Source of the DNA: a virus
Length of the DNA stretch: 64,000 nt
Strand: one strand, 5' to 3'
Virus record (IMG/VR): IMGVR_UViG_3300027754_000039
Span: 96,001 to 160,000 of that record
Positions 37,145-63,693 of this stretch are shown in pieces. Positions within the stretch are counted from its first letter, which is position 1, and the number at the start of each line of letters is the position of its first letter. The position numbers and the translations under genes are program-made. A model generated the notes under the pieces. The model ran no database searches, was not told the DNA's origin, and worked only from the letters and a program-made list of their open reading frames with translations.

Positions 37145-37792
37145 TTATATTACTTGATCAATTAAACCTAACTCAGCTGCTTTAGCTGCGGTCATATAAT
37201 AATCTTTTCTACATGCTTTGCGCCAAAACTCTTCATCATGTTTTGTTTTGGCAGCCATCATTTTATAAAAGTCTTCTTCTAACTCGTCAATATGTTCTGC
37301 ATTTGCTTTAATGTCGGCAGACTTACCAAATATATTAGCTGAAGCTTCGTGAACCATAATAGTAGTATTTTTAGAAGCAGCTCTTATTCCAGTACCACAA
37401 CATAAAATCATTGCACCTGCTGACATTGCTCTTCCTCTTGCAATAACATTAATTGGCACTGATACTGATTCCATATAATCAATAATACCTAAAGCTTCGT
37501 ACACGTCACCCCCATTGGAGTTTAATAACAATGTAATTGGATCTTCTTTTTTATCTTCAGGGCGATGTTCTAATATTAATCTAACTTTTGAAATAAAATC
37601 GAAGCAATTGCCTAACATTATATCTCCATGTAAATAAATAACAGAGTCGGTAACACTAACGCCATAGTCTATTTCATTATAAAGATCTTTACTTGACTTT
37701 TCGTCTTTTTTATCTTCTAACCTTTTCTTTTTAGATTCAGGCTCATCGTCATACAAACCTTTGTAGACTGTGTTATTATTTATTTTAGTCAT
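37145..37792 (-). CDS. clpP: ClpP-family serine protease
   Basis: LNSNGGDVY...GRAMSAGAMIL...IMVHE...KDYYM..AAELGLIDQV; Ser-His-Asp triad present. Confidence 0.9.
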   Translation of the reverse strand: MTKINNNTVYKGLYDDEPESKKKRLEDKKDEKSSKDLYNEIDYGVSVTDSVIYLHGDIMLGNCFDFISKVRLILEHRPEDKKEDPITLLLNSNGGDVYEALGIIDYMESVSVPINVIARGRAMSAGAMILCCGTGIRAASKNTTIMVHEASANIFGKSADIKANAEHIDELEEDFYKMMAAKTKHDEEFWRKACRKDYYMTAAKAAELGLIDQVI

Positions 37793-45496: not shown

Positions 45497-45567
45497 TAGT
45501 CAGGACAGGATTCGAACCTGTACATTTAGAGCAGCGCCCTTTGTGTTTACCGTTTCACCACCTGACT
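45497..45567 (-). ncRNA. tRNA-like RNA with a non-canonical anticodon arm
   Basis: Acceptor AGTCAGG/CCTGACT+A, D arm GTG-AAACGGTAAA-CAC, T arm ACAGG-TTCGAAT-CCTGT; no 5-bp stem + 7-nt anticodon loop can be formed. Confidence 0.75.
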
Positions 45568-49161: not shown

Positions 49162-50412
49162 CTAATTGCTTAAAGGTGCTTTAATACTTGGATGTGATTG
49201 ATAATTACTTAATTGCAAATCTTCTTCTAATAAACATCTACAAAAGTTTTCATCGTTAAATGCTTCAAATACTTTAACAGCATCTAACGGTCCTTCACCA
49301 CACTCACCACCTTCATAAGGCCAGAACTCTGTATTGATGTTTAATGTTGGTAGTTCAAATCTATCTCTACCAATCTGTTCTTTAGCTTGTTCAATATGAT
49401 TTGAATATAAATGTGTATCACCTAAATTTCCAATCAATTCATCAGGAACCATATTAACAGCTTTAGCAATGATTTCTAATAACAATCCATAAGATGCTAT
49501 GTTAAATGGTAAACCAAGGAATGTATCTACTGAGCGTTGATTCCATATTAAAGAGATTGTTCTGGTTGGTATTTTGTAAGGTGTGTTATCTACATTAGTA
49601 GGAACCATCATATCAGCTAAAGGCCCATATTTTTCTTTCCATATTGGAAGAGCTAGTTGATGTCTTTCTTCCATACTCAACTCTCTTGTATAAACTTGAA
49701 ATCCATAATGACAAGGTGGAAGTGTCATTTGGTCTAATTCTCCAACATTCCAGCTATTAACCATTAATCGTCTTGAATCTGGATTTGTTTTAAGGTCGTT
49801 GATTAGGTTTGCGATTTGGTCTATTTGTTTAATTTCAACATCATACTTATGTTTTCTATAATTCATCATTCCGTCACGACTTACATATGTGTTATGATTA
49901 CTTAATTCATATGTTTCCCAACTTCTCCATTGCTTACCATAAATTGGACCTAACTCACCCCACTTTTTAGCAAACTCATCATCAGTTTTTATTTTGTTGA
50001 TGAATTCTTCTTGTGTCAAATGACGAGTAGGGTGAGGAGATACTATAGAACGCCCATTTAACAAACACCAACCTTTATCCCTATTTTGATAAAGAATGTT
50101 TGTATGATGGTCGTGTATTGTTGCTAGTGGATATTTTGTATAGTTCTTATAAGCATCACCATCCCATATATGGCAATCATTATCAACAAGGAATTTAATG
50201 TTAGTACTCCCTTGGAGGAACCATAACAACTCTGTTGCGATAAGCCGTAGTGGTATCTTTTTGGTTGTGAGTAAAGGAAACCCATCACTCATTTTATGAC
50301 GAATCTGTCTTCCGAATATACTTAAAACCTCACCATTACGAGTATTCTTCTTCACTCCATTATCTAAGATGTCTTGGAGTAGGTCTGTGTACTGTTTATC
50401 TAGGTTGTTCAT
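49162..50412 (-). CDS. thyA: Thymidylate synthase ThyA with loop insertions
   Basis: FPLLTTKK..ELLWFL.G, LGPIYGKQWR, LPPCHYGFQ, NQRSVDTFLGLPFNIASY, GDTHLY.NH. Confidence 0.97.
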   Translation of the reverse strand: MNNLDKQYTDLLQDILDNGVKKNTRNGEVLSIFGRQIRHKMSDGFPLLTTKKIPLRLIATELLWFLQGSTNIKFLVDNDCHIWDGDAYKNYTKYPLATIHDHHTNILYQNRDKGWCLLNGRSIVSPHPTRHLTQEEFINKIKTDDEFAKKWGELGPIYGKQWRSWETYELSNHNTYVSRDGMMNYRKHKYDVEIKQIDQIANLINDLKTNPDSRRLMVNSWNVGELDQMTLPPCHYGFQVYTRELSMEERHQLALPIWKEKYGPLADMMVPTNVDNTPYKIPTRTISLIWNQRSVDTFLGLPFNIASYGLLLEIIAKAVNMVPDELIGNLGDTHLYSNHIEQAKEQIGRDRFELPTLNINTEFWPYEGGECGEGPLDAVKVFEAFNDENFCRCLLEEDLQLSNYQSHPSIKAPLSN

Positions 50413-50618
50413 TTTGCTTGTATTGTAGTAACATTAACTAACTCAGGTAGTTTACCTTCGGTTGATATTAATTTTTGATATTTTTCATCTCCAACTATAC
50501 CATCTATAGTCCATTCAGTTTTAATACCATTTTCATATAGTGGTATTGAGTATGTTGAAGGTAAGGGTTTAATAAACTCTTTACCATTTAAGTCCCATTT
50601 TTTATCTAGGTTGTTCAT
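50409..50618 (-). CDS. Hypothetical protein whose first six codons duplicate those of thyA
   Basis: MNNLDK; 18-nt direct repeat at 50395-50412 and 50601-50618. Confidence 0.65.
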   Translation of the reverse strand: MNNLDKKWDLNGKEFIKPLPSTYSIPLYENGIKTEWTIDGIVGDEKYQKLISTEGKLPELVNVTTIQAK

Positions 50619-50862
50619 CTTTATTTAGTTTAGCAAATTTATGGATTGGTTTAAAATTGTCGTAAGGCATAAATTGTTCTATTATTTCAAATTCTACTTC
50701 TAGTCCATCATAGCTAGCATCAGTATCGCGTATGAATAATCCGGCAGCGTCATCAGGATGTAATGGTAGCATTCTTATACCATTTCCATTTTTAGTGGTT
50801 GTGTCTGCCCACCATACCACCCAGTCAGCCGGTTCTATTCGTTTTACTAAACTACCTTTCAT
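50602..50862 (-). CDS. Hypothetical protein
   Basis: ORF track and operon context. Confidence 0.6.
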   Translation of the reverse strand: MKGSLVKRIEPADWVVWWADTTTKNGNGIRMLPLHPDDAAGLFIRDTDASYDGLEVEFEIIEQFMPYDNFKPIHKFAKLNKDEQPR

Positions 50863-51061
50863 ATTTTATTCTGTATATGGTTTCGTGATTATTTTCTTTT
50901 ACTACTTTTATATATTCCTTATTAAAATCATATGACTCTAAGTTATCCCACCTATCACTAAAACTTACTGTTGTTAGATTTGGTTCAAAGCTTTTTCCCC
51001 TAAGTCGAACTTCTTCCATATACTGATTTAGTTCAGATTGGGTTTTAATTAGTCTGACCAT
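50852..51061 (-). CDS. Hypothetical protein
   Basis: ORF track and operon context. Confidence 0.6.
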   Translation of the reverse strand: MVRLIKTQSELNQYMEEVRLRGKSFEPNLTTVSFSDRWDNLESYDFNKEYIKVVKENNHETIYRIKYER

Positions 51062-51194
51062 TAATAATCTCGTTTAATCGTTTAATTTCAGCGATTACAT
51101 CATCACCTAATTCTATTTTGGACATCATTGTTAAGTCCATTACTTGAGAGTGTAATACTTTGATTAACTCATCTTTTGCTTCTTCTTTGTTCAT
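51045..51194 (-). CDS. Small hypothetical protein (49 aa)
   Basis: Manual: MNKEEAKDELIKVLHSQVMDLTMMSKIELGDDVIAEIKRLNEIINGQTN*. Confidence 0.6.
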   Translation of the reverse strand: MNKEEAKDELIKVLHSQVMDLTMMSKIELGDDVIAEIKRLNEIINGQTN

Positions 51195-51216
51195 AACTTA
51201 TTTGTTTAATTTTAAA

Positions 51217-51247
51217 GTAAAAGGGCGGGATCCTTGCCCCGCCTCTT
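51217..51247 (-). terminator. Rho-independent terminator
   Basis: GGCGGG-GCAAGGAT-CCCGCC hairpin followed by CTTTT. Confidence 0.7.
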
Positions 51248-51260
51248 AAATCATCTTAAC

Positions 51261-51437
51261 TTAGTTAACTGAAGTCGTGTCTACTGCTAATACTGACTCA
51301 GTTGTGATAGCAACTGTAGTGTCACAAGCAACAGCACAAGAATCAACCGGAGTTGTTTCAGAAGCTGGAGCGTTTGAACTACAAGAAGCGAATAATGCAA
51401 CTGCAGCAATAGCTAGAACGAAAATTGAATTTTTCAT
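51261..51437 (-). CDS. Small lipoprotein (58 aa)
   Basis: Manual: MKNSIFVLAIAAVALFAS|CSSNAPASETTPVDSCAVACDTTVAITTESVLAVDTTSVN*. Confidence 0.75.
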   Translation of the reverse strand: MKNSIFVLAIAAVALFASCSSNAPASETTPVDSCAVACDTTVAITTESVLAVDTTSVN

Positions 51438-51490
51438 TTTTCTTTTTTATTAATTGTTAAACATAAATATAAGGTACCTTTCTTATATCG

Positions 51491-51861
51491 TGGACCCGGA
51501 GAGATTCGAACTCTCGTCCAAATTAAGTACTTCAATAAATTCATTTACAAGCTTAGTCTTGTTTTTCTAAACAGACAAAATAATCAATTTTTTGGATCTT
51601 TAGAGAAATTGATAAAAACTGTGCAACCAGATAAGTCAGGCCTACTTCACTGTTTGTGCCCTTCTGTTCCTAGGATAGACACACCCCGTTAACTATGCTG
51701 CTATTGCAACTTCGTTGCTTACGAAAGACAATGCGTCTTCGAAAGTGAAATCAGAGATTTCGTTTGCGTTTAAGCTTTTATATAGGTTATTAAAGAGTTT
51801 CCAATACTAACTCTGCTTGCATTTAAAGTAATACGCTTAACTGTCAAAACCGGTCGGGCCC
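51491..51861 (-). ncRNA. ssrA: tmRNA (371 nt), tag ANEISDFTFEDALSFVSNEVAIAA*
   Basis: 5' GGGCCCGACCGGTTTTGACAG, 3' GAGAG-TTCGAAT-CTCTC-CGGGTCC-A; acceptor has G3.U70; tag ORF 51767-51693 after TTAAAC. Confidence 0.95.
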
Positions 51862-51873
51862 ATATTACTAGTA

Positions 51874-51905
51874 TAAATATATAAATTTCTTATGAAACTT
51901 CCAAA
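51874..51905 (-). promoter_or_regulatory. Promoter TTTG-N20-TATATTTA (tmRNA); overlaps a late-type ATATTTAT motif
   Basis: Family member, 12 nt before the tmRNA 5' end. Confidence 0.7.
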
Positions 51906-51910
51906 TTAAA

Positions 51911-52297
51911 TTAATAATTCGGATCTATTTCATCATCTTCAAAAAGAAGACCTTCATCTTTAGTTACATCTTCTTCAACTACTACAGGCTCTTCAATTAA
52001 AGAGTTAGATATTGAAGGAATATTAATGATATCATCACTAACATCAGGAATGTAAGTTTCATCAATTTTATATTTCTTATAAAACAACCGAGTTAAATAA
52101 GTGTCAATACATTGATTCATTGCCACATCTACCTGCAGTTCTGAATATACTTTAGTGTCTTCACATAGAACATCGTATGTAAACTTTTTTCCAACTGGTC
52201 GAGCAAAGACTACCTTGCCTACTAATTTTCGCTCACCGAATCGTATTACTACAGGTTGGTTATTTGCGAATTTTCTTCTTTTAGATTGTCTTGCCAT
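51911..52297 (-). CDS. Hypothetical protein (SH3/Tudor-like N-terminus, acidic tail)
   Basis: ORF track. Confidence 0.65.
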   Translation of the reverse strand: MARQSKRRKFANNQPVVIRFGERKLVGKVVFARPVGKKFTYDVLCEDTKVYSELQVDVAMNQCIDTYLTRLFYKKYKIDETYIPDVSDDIINIPSISNSLIEEPVVVEEDVTKDEGLLFEDDEIDPNY

Positions 52298-52302
52298 AAT
52301 AA

Positions 52303-52506
52303 TTATTCTGCGCTGTAAACGTCAATGATACGAGATTGAGAAACTGATTTCACTTCAAAGTCTTGAGGATAATCTTTAAACTTATCATGTACAATTGCTT
52401 CTGCATCTGTTACTGACTCTGCTTTTACTAAATACGTTTCTGATTTTTTCTTTACATGACCTTTGTCATTTGTAAATTCTAATTTTACTGTTGCTGTGTA
52501 ATACAT
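52303..52506 (-). CDS. DUF4494-like protein
   Basis: MYYTATVK...KKKSETYLVKAESVTDAEA..V.SVSQSRIIDV resembles the Bacteroidota DUF4494 family; start revised. Confidence 0.7.
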   Translation of the reverse strand: MYYTATVKLEFTNDKGHVKKKSETYLVKAESVTDAEAIVHDKFKDYPQDFEVKSVSQSRIIDVYSAE

Positions 52507-52516
52507 ACTTTTTATT

Positions 52517-52729
52517 TTATTTGTTAAACGATTCAATGATTCCTTTGAATAATAATACTATGATTAGAGTGATGATAACTGCTACCGATGGTATCCATAA
52601 TGGCGCTGTTACCCACCACCAGGACCATTTAGCTACTTCACCCCAACCACCAAGCTTAAGTGTTAGAAATATAAGGAATAGAATTGTTCCTATACCAAAG
52701 CCTGTTGATGTTGTTTTGCTTTCTGCCAT
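52517..52729 (-). CDS. Small two-TM membrane protein
   Basis: LFLIFLTLKL.G.....WSWWWVTAPLWIP. Confidence 0.75.
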   Translation of the reverse strand: MAESKTTSTGFGIGTILFLIFLTLKLGGWGEVAKWSWWWVTAPLWIPSVAVIITLIIVLLFKGIIESFNK

Positions 52730-52749
52730 TTTATTTATTTTCTATATTG

Positions 52750-52781
52750 TAAAGATAAGATATTCTAATGTAAGTACCAAA
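52750..52781 (-). promoter_or_regulatory. Promoter TTTG-N20-TATCTTTA
   Basis: 31/32 identical to 54693-54724. Confidence 0.8.
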
Positions 52782-53288
52782 TTAAAAAGGAATTTCTTTT
52801 AAATAATCTTTCAAGCTTCTTGTAAACTGAATTTGAAATATTTCCTGTAATCTTTCGTAGGTAGCATTTAATAATGTAGCTGCATCATTTGGTATAAGAA
52901 ATAATTCTCTATACATTGAATTTCTAATGTCTATCACAAATGTAAGAAGTAATCTAGATATTGTAACGCTATCCTGATTTTCTATTTGGTTTGCCGCTAT
53001 CGTCAGCATATCTATTAATAAATTAAGCTTGCAGATAATTTCTTCTCGCTTAGATAATTTATCGTTAGGATATACATTATTAATTCGTTTAGGATCTTTA
53101 AGACGCTCTGCATAATATCTATCTAACTGATACCATTTTGGATCTATTTCAATTCGAAATTCTATTTTAATTAACTTAGAAGCTTCTAATAAAGTAAATC
53201 GCTCAACAAGCGTCAATGCAGTTCTGTATGCATCTAATGTCATAGGGGTTAAAGGGGTTTTATTCGTTTCTTTAAAGAAATTACTCAT
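52782..53288 (-). CDS. Hypothetical protein
   Basis: ORF track. Confidence 0.65.
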   Translation of the reverse strand: MSNFFKETNKTPLTPMTLDAYRTALTLVERFTLLEASKLIKIEFRIEIDPKWYQLDRYYAERLKDPKRINNVYPNDKLSKREEIICKLNLLIDMLTIAANQIENQDSVTISRLLLTFVIDIRNSMYRELFLIPNDAATLLNATYERLQEIFQIQFTRSLKDYLKEIPF

Positions 53289-62556: not shown

Positions 62557-63693
62557 TTATTTTGCTATATCGTCTGCTCCGAATAAATCACTTTTGGTCT
62601 CTTCAGGATTAATACAATATTTTTGTACTATTTGTTTTACATAGGTACGCTCCGAGTCAACTCCTCCATCCTCGCTAAAGAAAGGATATATACCAACCTC
62701 AGCGGCTTCTGTCAAACTAAACCCATCATATATTAATGATGTCAACTCCACAGCAGCACGAGTGGATAGCGAGTTAGTCAATTTAGGATTAGATGACTTA
62801 CACTCCTTACGAGTTTGAGAAGCGATCTCTGCAATTGCTTGCACAGCTTCTGTCTGCGCTGCTGGATACTTCATCTTTAATAAAGCGAATTCCATTTGCT
62901 CATCTAATTGATCCATTTCAATAGTGATGAATCGATCCTGCAACGCTCTATCCATTACACGAGTGGAAGTATACTCATTACCTACGTTTGCTGTGGCAAT
63001 GAAACTCACACCTGGTGCTACCTTAATAGTCGGAGCTCCGTCTTTTTCATCAAGGCGTAAATACCTTTGATTAAGATCCAATACAGTCATTAAGATGTTC
63101 CAAGCTTCAGGATGAGCTCTAGATAATTCATCTAACAGGATGACTGCATTTTCTGTCTGGATTGCTTTAACGAATAATGACTCCGCAAAGTAAGTACCAT
63201 CTTCTTTTGAGAAGTGAGTATTACCTATCAAGGTAGCACGCGGATCTTGAGTGGCGCCTAAGTTAAAATAAAAGTCTGGACGCTCCAATGCACTAACTAA
63301 ATACTTAGCGGCCATTGTCTTACCTGTTCCTGCAGGACCTGTCATCATGATATTCCTACCACGCATTGCTGAGCGTACAAGATATTTCCATTTCAGGTCA
63401 CTCATGATTAACTGCTCCGGCTTAAGACCAGTGGAGGCGTGGATGAATGTTTTCATTACATCATGCTCGCTATTAGCAGCTATCAATTCCACAGGAGTGT
63501 CTACCTGTGCTTGCATTGCGCTGGTCGCAAATGCCCATTCATTGGTTACATTATCCAATACTAATTGTGCTCCCTTTTCTGCCGCTGCACGTCTAAGTGA
63601 GCGATCAATTTGGTTAGACACATCCTTACCTTCAGCGGTAATGGCTTTCAAAAAACGACCTTCTTGGGTCACGGTTGCAATTGTTACTTTCAT
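62557..63693 (-). CDS. MoxR-family AAA+ ATPase (CbbQ/NirQ/CobS-like)
   Basis: GPAGTGKT, ILLDELSRA, FIATAN.G.EY.....MDRALQDRF, STR. Confidence 0.92.
   Translation of the reverse strand: MKVTIATVTQEGRFLKAITAEGKDVSNQIDRSLRRAAAEKGAQLVLDNVTNEWAFATSAMQAQVDTPVELIAANSEHDVMKTFIHASTGLKPEQLIMSDLKWKYLVRSAMRGRNIMMTGPAGTGKTMAAKYLVSALERPDFYFNLGATQDPRATLIGNTHFSKEDGTYFAESLFVKAIQTENAVILLDELSRAHPEAWNILMTVLDLNQRYLRLDEKDGAPTIKVAPGVSFIATANVGNEYTSTRVMDRALQDRFITIEMDQLDEQMEFALLKMKYPAAQTEAVQAIAEIASQTRKECKSSNPKLTNSLSTRAAVELTSLIYDGFSLTEAAEVGIYPFFSEDGGVDSERTYVKQIVQKYCINPEETKSDLFGADDIAK

Follow-up and report, generated by a model that had tools for sequence, protein, structure and literature searches.

A phage tmRNA with a 24-residue tag whose inserted core is conserved in a family found almost only on viral DNA

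Why does a large phage carry a tmRNA gene, and does the long tag which it encodes change the fate of the proteins that are rescued? To our knowledge, genome surveys have listed phage tmRNAs, but no activity has been demonstrated for any of them and their tags have never been compared. The gene considered here lies in a window of 64,000 nucleotides (the whole stretch of DNA that was analysed), corresponding to bases 96001-160000 of a 181,588-bp IMG/VR virus record which CheckV rates as 100% complete. The phage genome has a GC content of about 32% and carries nearly all of its genes on one strand. Its recognisable genes code for, among others, a baseplate wedge protein, thymidylate synthase, an ATP-dependent DNA ligase, the UvsE endonuclease and a holin. 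Freshwater and lake metagenomes contain this DNA. In its baseplate protein the phage shares 54% identity with Microcystis phage Mel-JY01 and 43% with Flavobacterium phage immuto. The Bacteroidota would be the likely host phylum; the cultured relative that is nearest in baseplate protein carries the label of a Microcystis phage.

Earlier reports of phage tmRNAs concern the mycobacteriophage Bxz1 group and Bacillus phage G (PMC4131195), huge phages (PMC7162821) and 402 of 18,146 phage genomes (PMC9004378). Marine Melnitz-like phages are among the earlier carriers, and the roles proposed are the maintenance of translation or the tagging of host proteins for recycling (PMC4131195, PMC7162821, PMC9004378). 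The window gene is like these in being a phage-borne ssrA, which usually comes without smpB. A conserved phage-specific tag family is absent from these three papers, and no paper on such a family was found in a literature search that was blind to subscription journals.

ARAGORN called a single tmRNA in the window, at 51490-51861 on the minus strand and with the tag ANEISDFTFEDALSFVSNEVAIAA. The Rfam model RF00023 matched 51488-51861 on the same strand over model positions 1-374, with 101.8 bits against a gathering score of 47 (E = 1.3e-38), and a search of the whole 181,588-bp genome with RF00023 gave the same tmRNA result. From these two sources the gene is of the one-piece type (51491-51861, minus strand), with the mature 5' G at 51861 and the discriminator A at 51491, bounds within which the metatranscriptome contigs described below also fall. 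The 5' half of the tRNA-like domain (51835-51861, minus strand; ARAGORN 5' domain 1-27) contains the acceptor strand GGGCCCG including G3, and the 3' half (51491-51528, minus strand; ARAGORN 3' domain 334-372) contains the T arm, the acceptor strand CGGGUCC with U70 and the discriminator A. Direct reading of the sequence gives an acceptor stem GGGCCCG/CGGGUCC of 7 bp with G3·U70 and discriminator A, and the T loop GTTCGAATC. By ARAGORN, RF00023 and direct reading, the coordinates, the tag and the alanine-identity features given in the original prediction, which was made from the DNA letters alone, are correct. The 3' end reads A-CGA, so that CCA is only partly encoded and must be completed after transcription. 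The PK2-PK4 region aligned poorly to the Rfam model, with low posterior probabilities, and was too divergent for alignment within the family of relatives described below. We conclude that the locus is very probably a functional tmRNA with a 24-residue tag.

The length of this tag depends on the codon at which translation resumes. ARAGORN, the Rfam alignment and conservation in the family all give a tag reading frame of 24 codons and a TAG stop (51693-51767, minus strand), in which the ORF runs from the resume codon GCA at 51767 to 51696, ends with AIAA-TAG and has its stop at 51695-51693. In E. coli tmRNA the frame is set by A86 and U85, which precede the resume codon by 4 and 5 bases (PMC2481249). 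The family alignment places the corresponding frame-setting sequence of the window tmRNA at 51768-51774 (minus strand), with U(-5) at 51772 and A(-4) at 51771; all 61 aligned family tmRNAs have A(-4) (alignment column A91), and U(-5) is usual. The resume codon of the relatives always begins with G (GCN, GAC or GGC), and in several of them the start is bounded by in-frame stops one or two codons upstream. Resumption at codon 17, giving the tag SNEVAIAA, was considered and rejected: it would place C at -4 before an AGC codon and leave the residue-level conservation of the preceding codons unexplained. The A(-4)/U(-5) context thus determines where translation resumes and gives the tag its full 24 residues; the possibility entertained in the original prediction, that the resume codon maps further downstream, fails on this context. 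The description of the tag as unusually long holds against bacterial tags but not against a large phage tmRNA family, whose modal length is 24 residues. Its C-terminal V-A-I-A-A (51696-51710, minus strand) is a degron end of the canonical type, the family ending in YAVAA, YALAA or VAIAA, and by analogy with E. coli ssrA it probably acts as a degron.

The stretch 50000-53000 was compared with Logan contigs, and near-identical matches were obtained in four metatranscriptome runs from four studies. These were a contig at 51500-51841 in run X22 (depth 42, one mismatch, with sequencing adapters at both ends), 51497-51810 in run X24 (depth 85), 51529-51810 in run X23 (depth 5.9) and 51603-51842 in run X3 (depth 73, flanking genes having a depth of 3-7). 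None of the near-identical RNA-library contigs in the four runs extends beyond the predicted mature ends of the tmRNA. Contigs confined to the tmRNA with the immediate flanks uncovered, as in three of the runs, are expected from a stable small RNA; the uncovered parts of the 3-kb stretch in runs X22-X24 were given no weight. Against the proviso that the RNA might not be expressed stand contigs covering only the tmRNA in four RNA studies, although RNA libraries may contain DNA and Logan contigs do not give the strand, exact ends or true expression level.

Upstream of the gene, a promoter-like pair (51874-51905, minus strand) consisting of TTTG at 51905-51902, a 20-nt spacer and TAtaTTTA at 51881-51874 ends 12 nt before the mature 5' end; we take it to match the Bacteroidota promoter consensus. 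The same -33/-7 arrangement is present upstream of 10 of 61 family members, compared with 0.68% of background windows (binomial p ~1e-11). A scan for generic sigma-70 promoters and terminators around the tmRNA gave nothing above shuffles, and the nearest intrinsic terminator is not immediately behind the tmRNA but at 51224-51243, past a lipoprotein ORF. Many family members without the -33/-7 pair have another motif, approximately AGTTCTTTRAAATAT followed by GGG, within the 15 bases before the tmRNA 5' end (e.g. L051, L061, L087, L102 and L121). This motif abuts the mature 5' end and could be a phage-specific promoter or processing signal.

The extent of the family was determined by two types of scan of IMG/VR. 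The first used the 5' end of the tmRNA, and is therefore independent of the tag; it matched 34 stretches, of which 10 hold tmRNAs with tags of 23-25 residues and the core TFEDAM/L-S/A-FV (loci L002/L004, L003, L014, L015, L018, L019, L022, L023 and the partial L031). The core of L018 is the variant TIEDALAFV. The remaining stretches have 9-residue Bacteroidota-type tags or unrelated long tags. The second used the tag, and in its tight form yielded at least 118 viral stretches with the core, the number expected by chance being estimated at well under one; a loose form gave many chance matches in protein genes, which were removed by ARAGORN and ORF length. In 121 core-holding loci, the U(-5)/A(-4) rule delimited 99 tags of 22-26 residues, 64 of them of 24 residues, the commonest being AEELSSFTFEDAMAFVGADYAVAA. 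The family core reads S-x-x-T-F-E-D-A-M/L-S/A-F-V and is followed by a YAVAA-like end. The window tag conforms to this pattern in S5, in T8-V16, in its VAIAA end and in its 24 residues, and its nine-residue core, T-F-E-D-A-L-S-F-V, is encoded at 51720-51746 on the minus strand.

Outside viruses the core is almost absent. Among 185,579 bacterial and archaeal genomes (one per species) the core pattern matched 21 stretches, a single one of which is a tmRNA, carried by the MAG of an uncultured bacterium on a 4.5-kb contig; ARAGORN gave no tmRNA in the other 20, which were rejected as chance matches. The long-tag genes are internal in complete phage records of 100-270 kb, five of the large records having terminal repeats, and one complete record of 159,934 bp (L143, the same as G017) has a tag identical to that of the window. 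Of the 10 near-complete family records, seven have the baseplate protein (41-56% identity) and three are without it; the family thus belongs mainly, but not exclusively, to one myovirus lineage. When the window tmRNA region and a typical family member were compared by blastn with 50,697 GenBank phages, only a 35-base match at the 3' end was found, and there is therefore no cultured example in hand; as to cultured relatives, the Rfam tmRNA model matched nothing in immuto and just 17 bases in Mel-JY01, with a score far below the cut-off.

Could the gene be a mere passenger, that is, a recently captured or decaying host ssrA copy, left for instance at an integration site and without a role in infection? 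tmRNA genes are common integration sites of prophages, and the host-type tmRNAs (GENNYALAA type, in the L007-L036 subset) lie mostly at or near the ends of other IMG/VR contigs, as is expected for host ssrA at prophage borders. The window gene, however, is full-length and internal in a complete 181.6-kb genome, it belongs to a family that covaries across at least 118 viral contigs, its tag is almost never seen in cells and it is present in RNA libraries, which makes such an origin nearly inconceivable.

Three further phage tmRNAs have unrelated tags which, read by eye, are about 37-40 residues long (L006:4573-4960, minus strand; L026:5776-6148, plus strand; and L178:1501-1944, plus strand, from LR756508.1), and phage tmRNAs may often carry long tags. 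In the 484-kb phage LR756508 the core is faintly echoed as G-F-T-A-E-D-F.

The family RNAs are diverse in sequence and conserved in structure. Across 61 distinct family tmRNAs the mean identity per column is only 43%. In helix 2, the PK1 hairpin and the T arm, 98.8% of the cells of the same 61 are paired, a value which drops to 33-51% when the partners are slid, and 184 double-change cells were observed compared with 47.9 in shuffles; in the T arm, changes on both sides occur in four of the five pairs. Since the helices covary, the family RNAs are constrained and functional. The locus presents the sequence features of a tmRNA outside the PK2-PK4 region, a helix-covarying family that is almost only viral, and an RNA-sized metatranscriptome contig.

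Apart from the tRNA-like ends, the best-conserved block of the 61-tmRNA alignment is the tag region, and the variation inside it is almost wholly synonymous. Ser(-3), which was specified by neither of the scans used to collect the family, is invariant and is encoded by four codons; three codons are in use for Thr(0), and the codons for Asp, Ala and Val vary in the third base. The method of Nei and Gojobori gave pS 0.499 and pN 0.127 for the set found by the 5' end, and pS 0.656 and pN 0.051 for the nine core codons. The invariance of the core is due in part to the collection, in which the scan patterns fixed F-E-D-A and F-V, but the flanking positions and the independently found set give the same synonymous-biased picture.

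Overlapping the core in the tag frame is an RNA hairpin (51718-51745, minus strand; C-Y/R-G plus CGAA/UUCG stems), recognised by covariation and aligned by Rfam to helix 5 of tmRNA. It is 100% paired in the 61 sequences, and covariation links position 3 of the Thr codon to position 1 of codon 17 (Gly/Ser), the combinations being CG in 34, UG in 16, UA in 11 and unpaired in 0. This overlapping hairpin, with its one covarying pair, places part of the constraint on the core at the RNA level. One might go further and propose that the whole extension is kept for the RNA, as a helix-5-like hairpin or protein-binding site for folding, stability or ribosome loading, with the peptide as a by-product. 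The complete pairing, the covarying pair and the alignment to helix 5 would all fit this proposal, as would a codon choice that is narrower than the residues require (TTC in 51 of 57, GAA in 54 of 57). We consider it very unlikely, in view of three observations. In the loop codons, D-A-M-S/A, nearly all variation is synonymous; conservation at the residue level, with as many as four codons in use, also holds for Ser(-3), Thr(0) and the aromatic position -1, all of them at the margin of the helix or beyond it; and the other helices covary freely while the tag hairpin keeps its sequence, which fits a coding constraint. RNA and peptide constraints thus both act, and the RNA constraint alone does not account for changes that are nearly always synonymous.

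It had been suggested in the original prediction that the extra acidic and aromatic segment of the tag matters, perhaps by recruiting a different adaptor or protease. The pS/pN contrast upholds the first part of this, since a segment under peptide-level selection is likely to be functional, and because the tag family is conserved and occurs almost only on viral DNA, the segment probably has a specific job. The further idea of the original prediction, that the RNA is of use when host mRNAs or tRNAs have been cut, is speculative. The insert follows the pattern S-x-aromatic-T-F-E-D-A-M-S/A-F-V-G; in the window tag, M is replaced by L, G by S and YAVAA by VAIAA. Judging from its residues, the insert may form a helix of two turns with Thr and Gly as caps. 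The core has an unremarkable hydrophobic moment, and its motif did not recur elsewhere in a six-frame translation of the window phage genome.

Comparison with known systems suggests how such a tag might be read. With the one-piece tmRNA of the Bacteroidota the phage RNA shares its architecture, G3·U70, the A(-4) signal, a resume codon beginning with G and an Ala-rich hydrophobic C-terminus, and the 15-base 5' motif GACCGGTTTTGACAG is identical in the chromosomal tmRNAs of 22 of 401 Bacteroidota genomes. Fifteen of the Bacteroidota chromosomal tmRNAs with this motif have 9-residue tags (GETSYAMAA, GNTQYAMAA, GETNYAMAA and GENNYALAA), ending in YAMAA or YALAA. The phage RNA differs from them in its tag of 24 residues rather than 9, with an insert of about 15 residues, in being phage-borne and in having no accompanying smpB. 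The last eight residues of the phage tag (G-A-D-Y-A-V-A-A in most members) resemble the Bacteroidota tags, so that the tag can be described as an insert of about 15 residues placed in front of a degron of the host type.

The ssrA tag of E. coli is also read in two parts, AANDENY being bound by the SspB adaptor and LAA by ClpX. By analogy, the N-terminal part of the phage tag may serve a second factor and its C-terminal residues ClpX; the phage core is, however, unrelated to AANDENY, SspB was not found in the phage genome, and we know of no SspB-like adaptor in the Bacteroidota. The Mycoplasma tag has 27 residues and is read by Lon (PMC8403727). Like the phage tag it is far longer than usual, and its extra length carries determinants for a protease other than ClpXP. 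The two have no sequence similarity and the phage tag keeps a ClpX-type end; moreover, Mycoplasma is without ClpXP whereas the likely hosts of the window phage have it. Even so, the reading of the Mycoplasma tag by Lon is the closest functional parallel to an extended tag in two parts.

Which of the factors required by such a system does the phage itself supply? The original prediction had noted that no smpB is visible in the window, and SmpB (PF01668) is absent from the whole 181,588-bp genome as well. Lon, FtsH, SspB and a Clp ATPase were also sought across the whole genome and none was found. The only AAA_2 hit (62557-63693) was examined as a Clp unfoldase candidate and rejected as a MoxR/CbbQ-type AAA_5 protein. 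The ORF which had been named as a ClpP with an intact triad (37145-37792, minus strand) has the S14 fold (PF00574, 114.5 bits), and its Ser, His and Asp align with those of solved ClpPs including the human one. To this extent the identification stands, but the ORF scores below all NCBIfam cut-offs, the best ClpP score being 104.4 against a cut-off of 249 and that of the ClpP-related head protease model 95.7 against 120, its best PHROG label is head maturation protease, and it has no cognate Clp ATPase. A second ClpP-fold ORF of 194 aa (genome G000:C1:40433-40957, equivalent to L174:1501-2085; minus strand) adjoins the DNA polymerase gene, and neither paralogue is beside recognised head genes. 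A ClpS homologue (PF02617, 61.6 bits) lies outside the window at genome G000:C1:169106-169312 on the minus strand.

These genes bear upon the idea that the long tag routes rescued proteins to a ClpP-based system owned by the phage, that is, a private pathway of rescue and degradation. The two ClpP-fold ORFs with their aligned catalytic residues and their position away from recognised head genes, together with the ClpS homologue, are in its favour. ClpP alone, however, is unable to unfold tagged proteins, and since the genome encodes no Clp unfoldase, Lon or FtsH, a proteolysis route of the phage's own, as originally envisaged, would be impossible. Nor is a link between the tag and the phage ClpP supported. 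Among 20 large family records, ClpP-fold genes are present in three, ClpS in two and SmpB in two, and the complete record L143/G017, whose tag is identical, has none of the three. Together with the head maturation label and the sub-threshold ClpP scores, this leaves the private pathway most improbable. Because ClpP, ClpS and SmpB do not travel with the tag, the factor that reads the core is either a host factor or an unrecognised phage protein.

We therefore favour a phage tmRNA that depends upon host SmpB and whose two-part tag contains a second recognition element, and give this explanation as a whole a probability of roughly 0.55. The phage tmRNA would be transcribed by the host RNA polymerase from its own Bacteroidota-type promoter, processed by host enzymes and charged by the host AlaRS by way of G3·U70. 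As the phage has no SmpB of its own, that of the host would be used to deliver the RNA to stalled ribosomes. The ribosome would then append a tag consisting of the inserted segment and the C-terminal VAIAA (YAVAA in most relatives), the latter serving as an ordinary degron for host proteases of the ClpXP type. The inserted segment, S-x-x-T-FEDA(L/M)(S/A)FV-(G/S), would be a second recognition element for a factor common to the hosts, the candidates being a protease such as Lon or FtsH, the N-domain of ClpX or ClpA, or an adaptor. Proteins with the phage tag would be degraded faster than those with the 9-residue host tag, or differently from them. The part of this explanation that concerns a phage tmRNA, which would depend on host SmpB, is well supported, and the altered handling of the tagged proteins is what we infer from it. 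That the core specifically routes proteins to proteolysis has, from the sequence evidence, slightly less than an even chance of being correct.

An outcome other than faster degradation has also to be weighed. The tag might not be mainly a faster degron, its helix instead giving the tagged proteins another fate, such as saturating a protease or adaptor, going to the membrane or being marked off from host-tagged proteins. The core is almost only on viral DNA, is strictly conserved and is unlike any known tag, and other phage tmRNAs (L006, L026 and LR756508) carry unrelated tags of 37-40 residues, which suggests that phages in general elaborate their tags. On the other hand, the YAVAA or VAIAA end is kept in nearly all members, so that degradation would still be the end point, and we regard a fate of this kind as unlikely. 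We would put forward only tentatively, and with some doubt, the notion that the tag helix is an almost virus-only docking motif for a specific host or phage protein, by which trans-translation is reprogrammed in a clade of large freshwater phages. If it were true, phage-rescued proteins would be sent to another protease or fate than host-tagged ones, representing a new takeover of host protein quality control.

What sets this family apart is that the tag, and not the rest of the RNA, is best conserved across more than 100 otherwise divergent phage tmRNAs while being almost absent from cells. The role of a phage-carried tmRNA thereby becomes directly testable, with the nine-residue core as a probe for pull-downs or reporter fusions in Flavobacterium-type hosts, and the answer would tell whether phages only supply more rescue capacity or alter what becomes of the rescued proteins as well. 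New here are the contrast between synonymous and non-synonymous change, the overlapping hairpin, the evidence for expression, the promoter and the negative co-occurrence results.

The genes around the tmRNA were also compared, and across 88 family loci no protein family is consistently beside it. Directly downstream of the window tmRNA is a small lipoprotein ORF of 58 residues (51261-51437, minus strand), with the lipobox LFASC and a weak match to the PG1828 family; it also carries VDS/VDT repeats. Homologues of this lipoprotein, the most frequent neighbour, are situated about 0.3-2.5 kb from the long-tag tmRNA in 18 of the 88 viral loci. A protein of about 67 residues with the motif YLV-A-SVT-AE and no family match, encoded in the window at 52303-52536 (minus strand), is found near the tmRNA in 12 of 88.

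Rfam recognises a tRNA at 45497-45567 (minus strand; 48.6 bits) which ARAGORN did not call; by eye its anticodon arm closes on a 3-base loop, and it is therefore probably unable to decode. In L143 the counterpart of this element is directly upstream of the tmRNA. In another viral stretch, the first 21 bases of the window tmRNA occur exactly and with no tmRNA body (L005:6119-6139), and a group I intron (RF00028, 104 bits; L005:5158-5392) lies about 700 bases upstream of this match.
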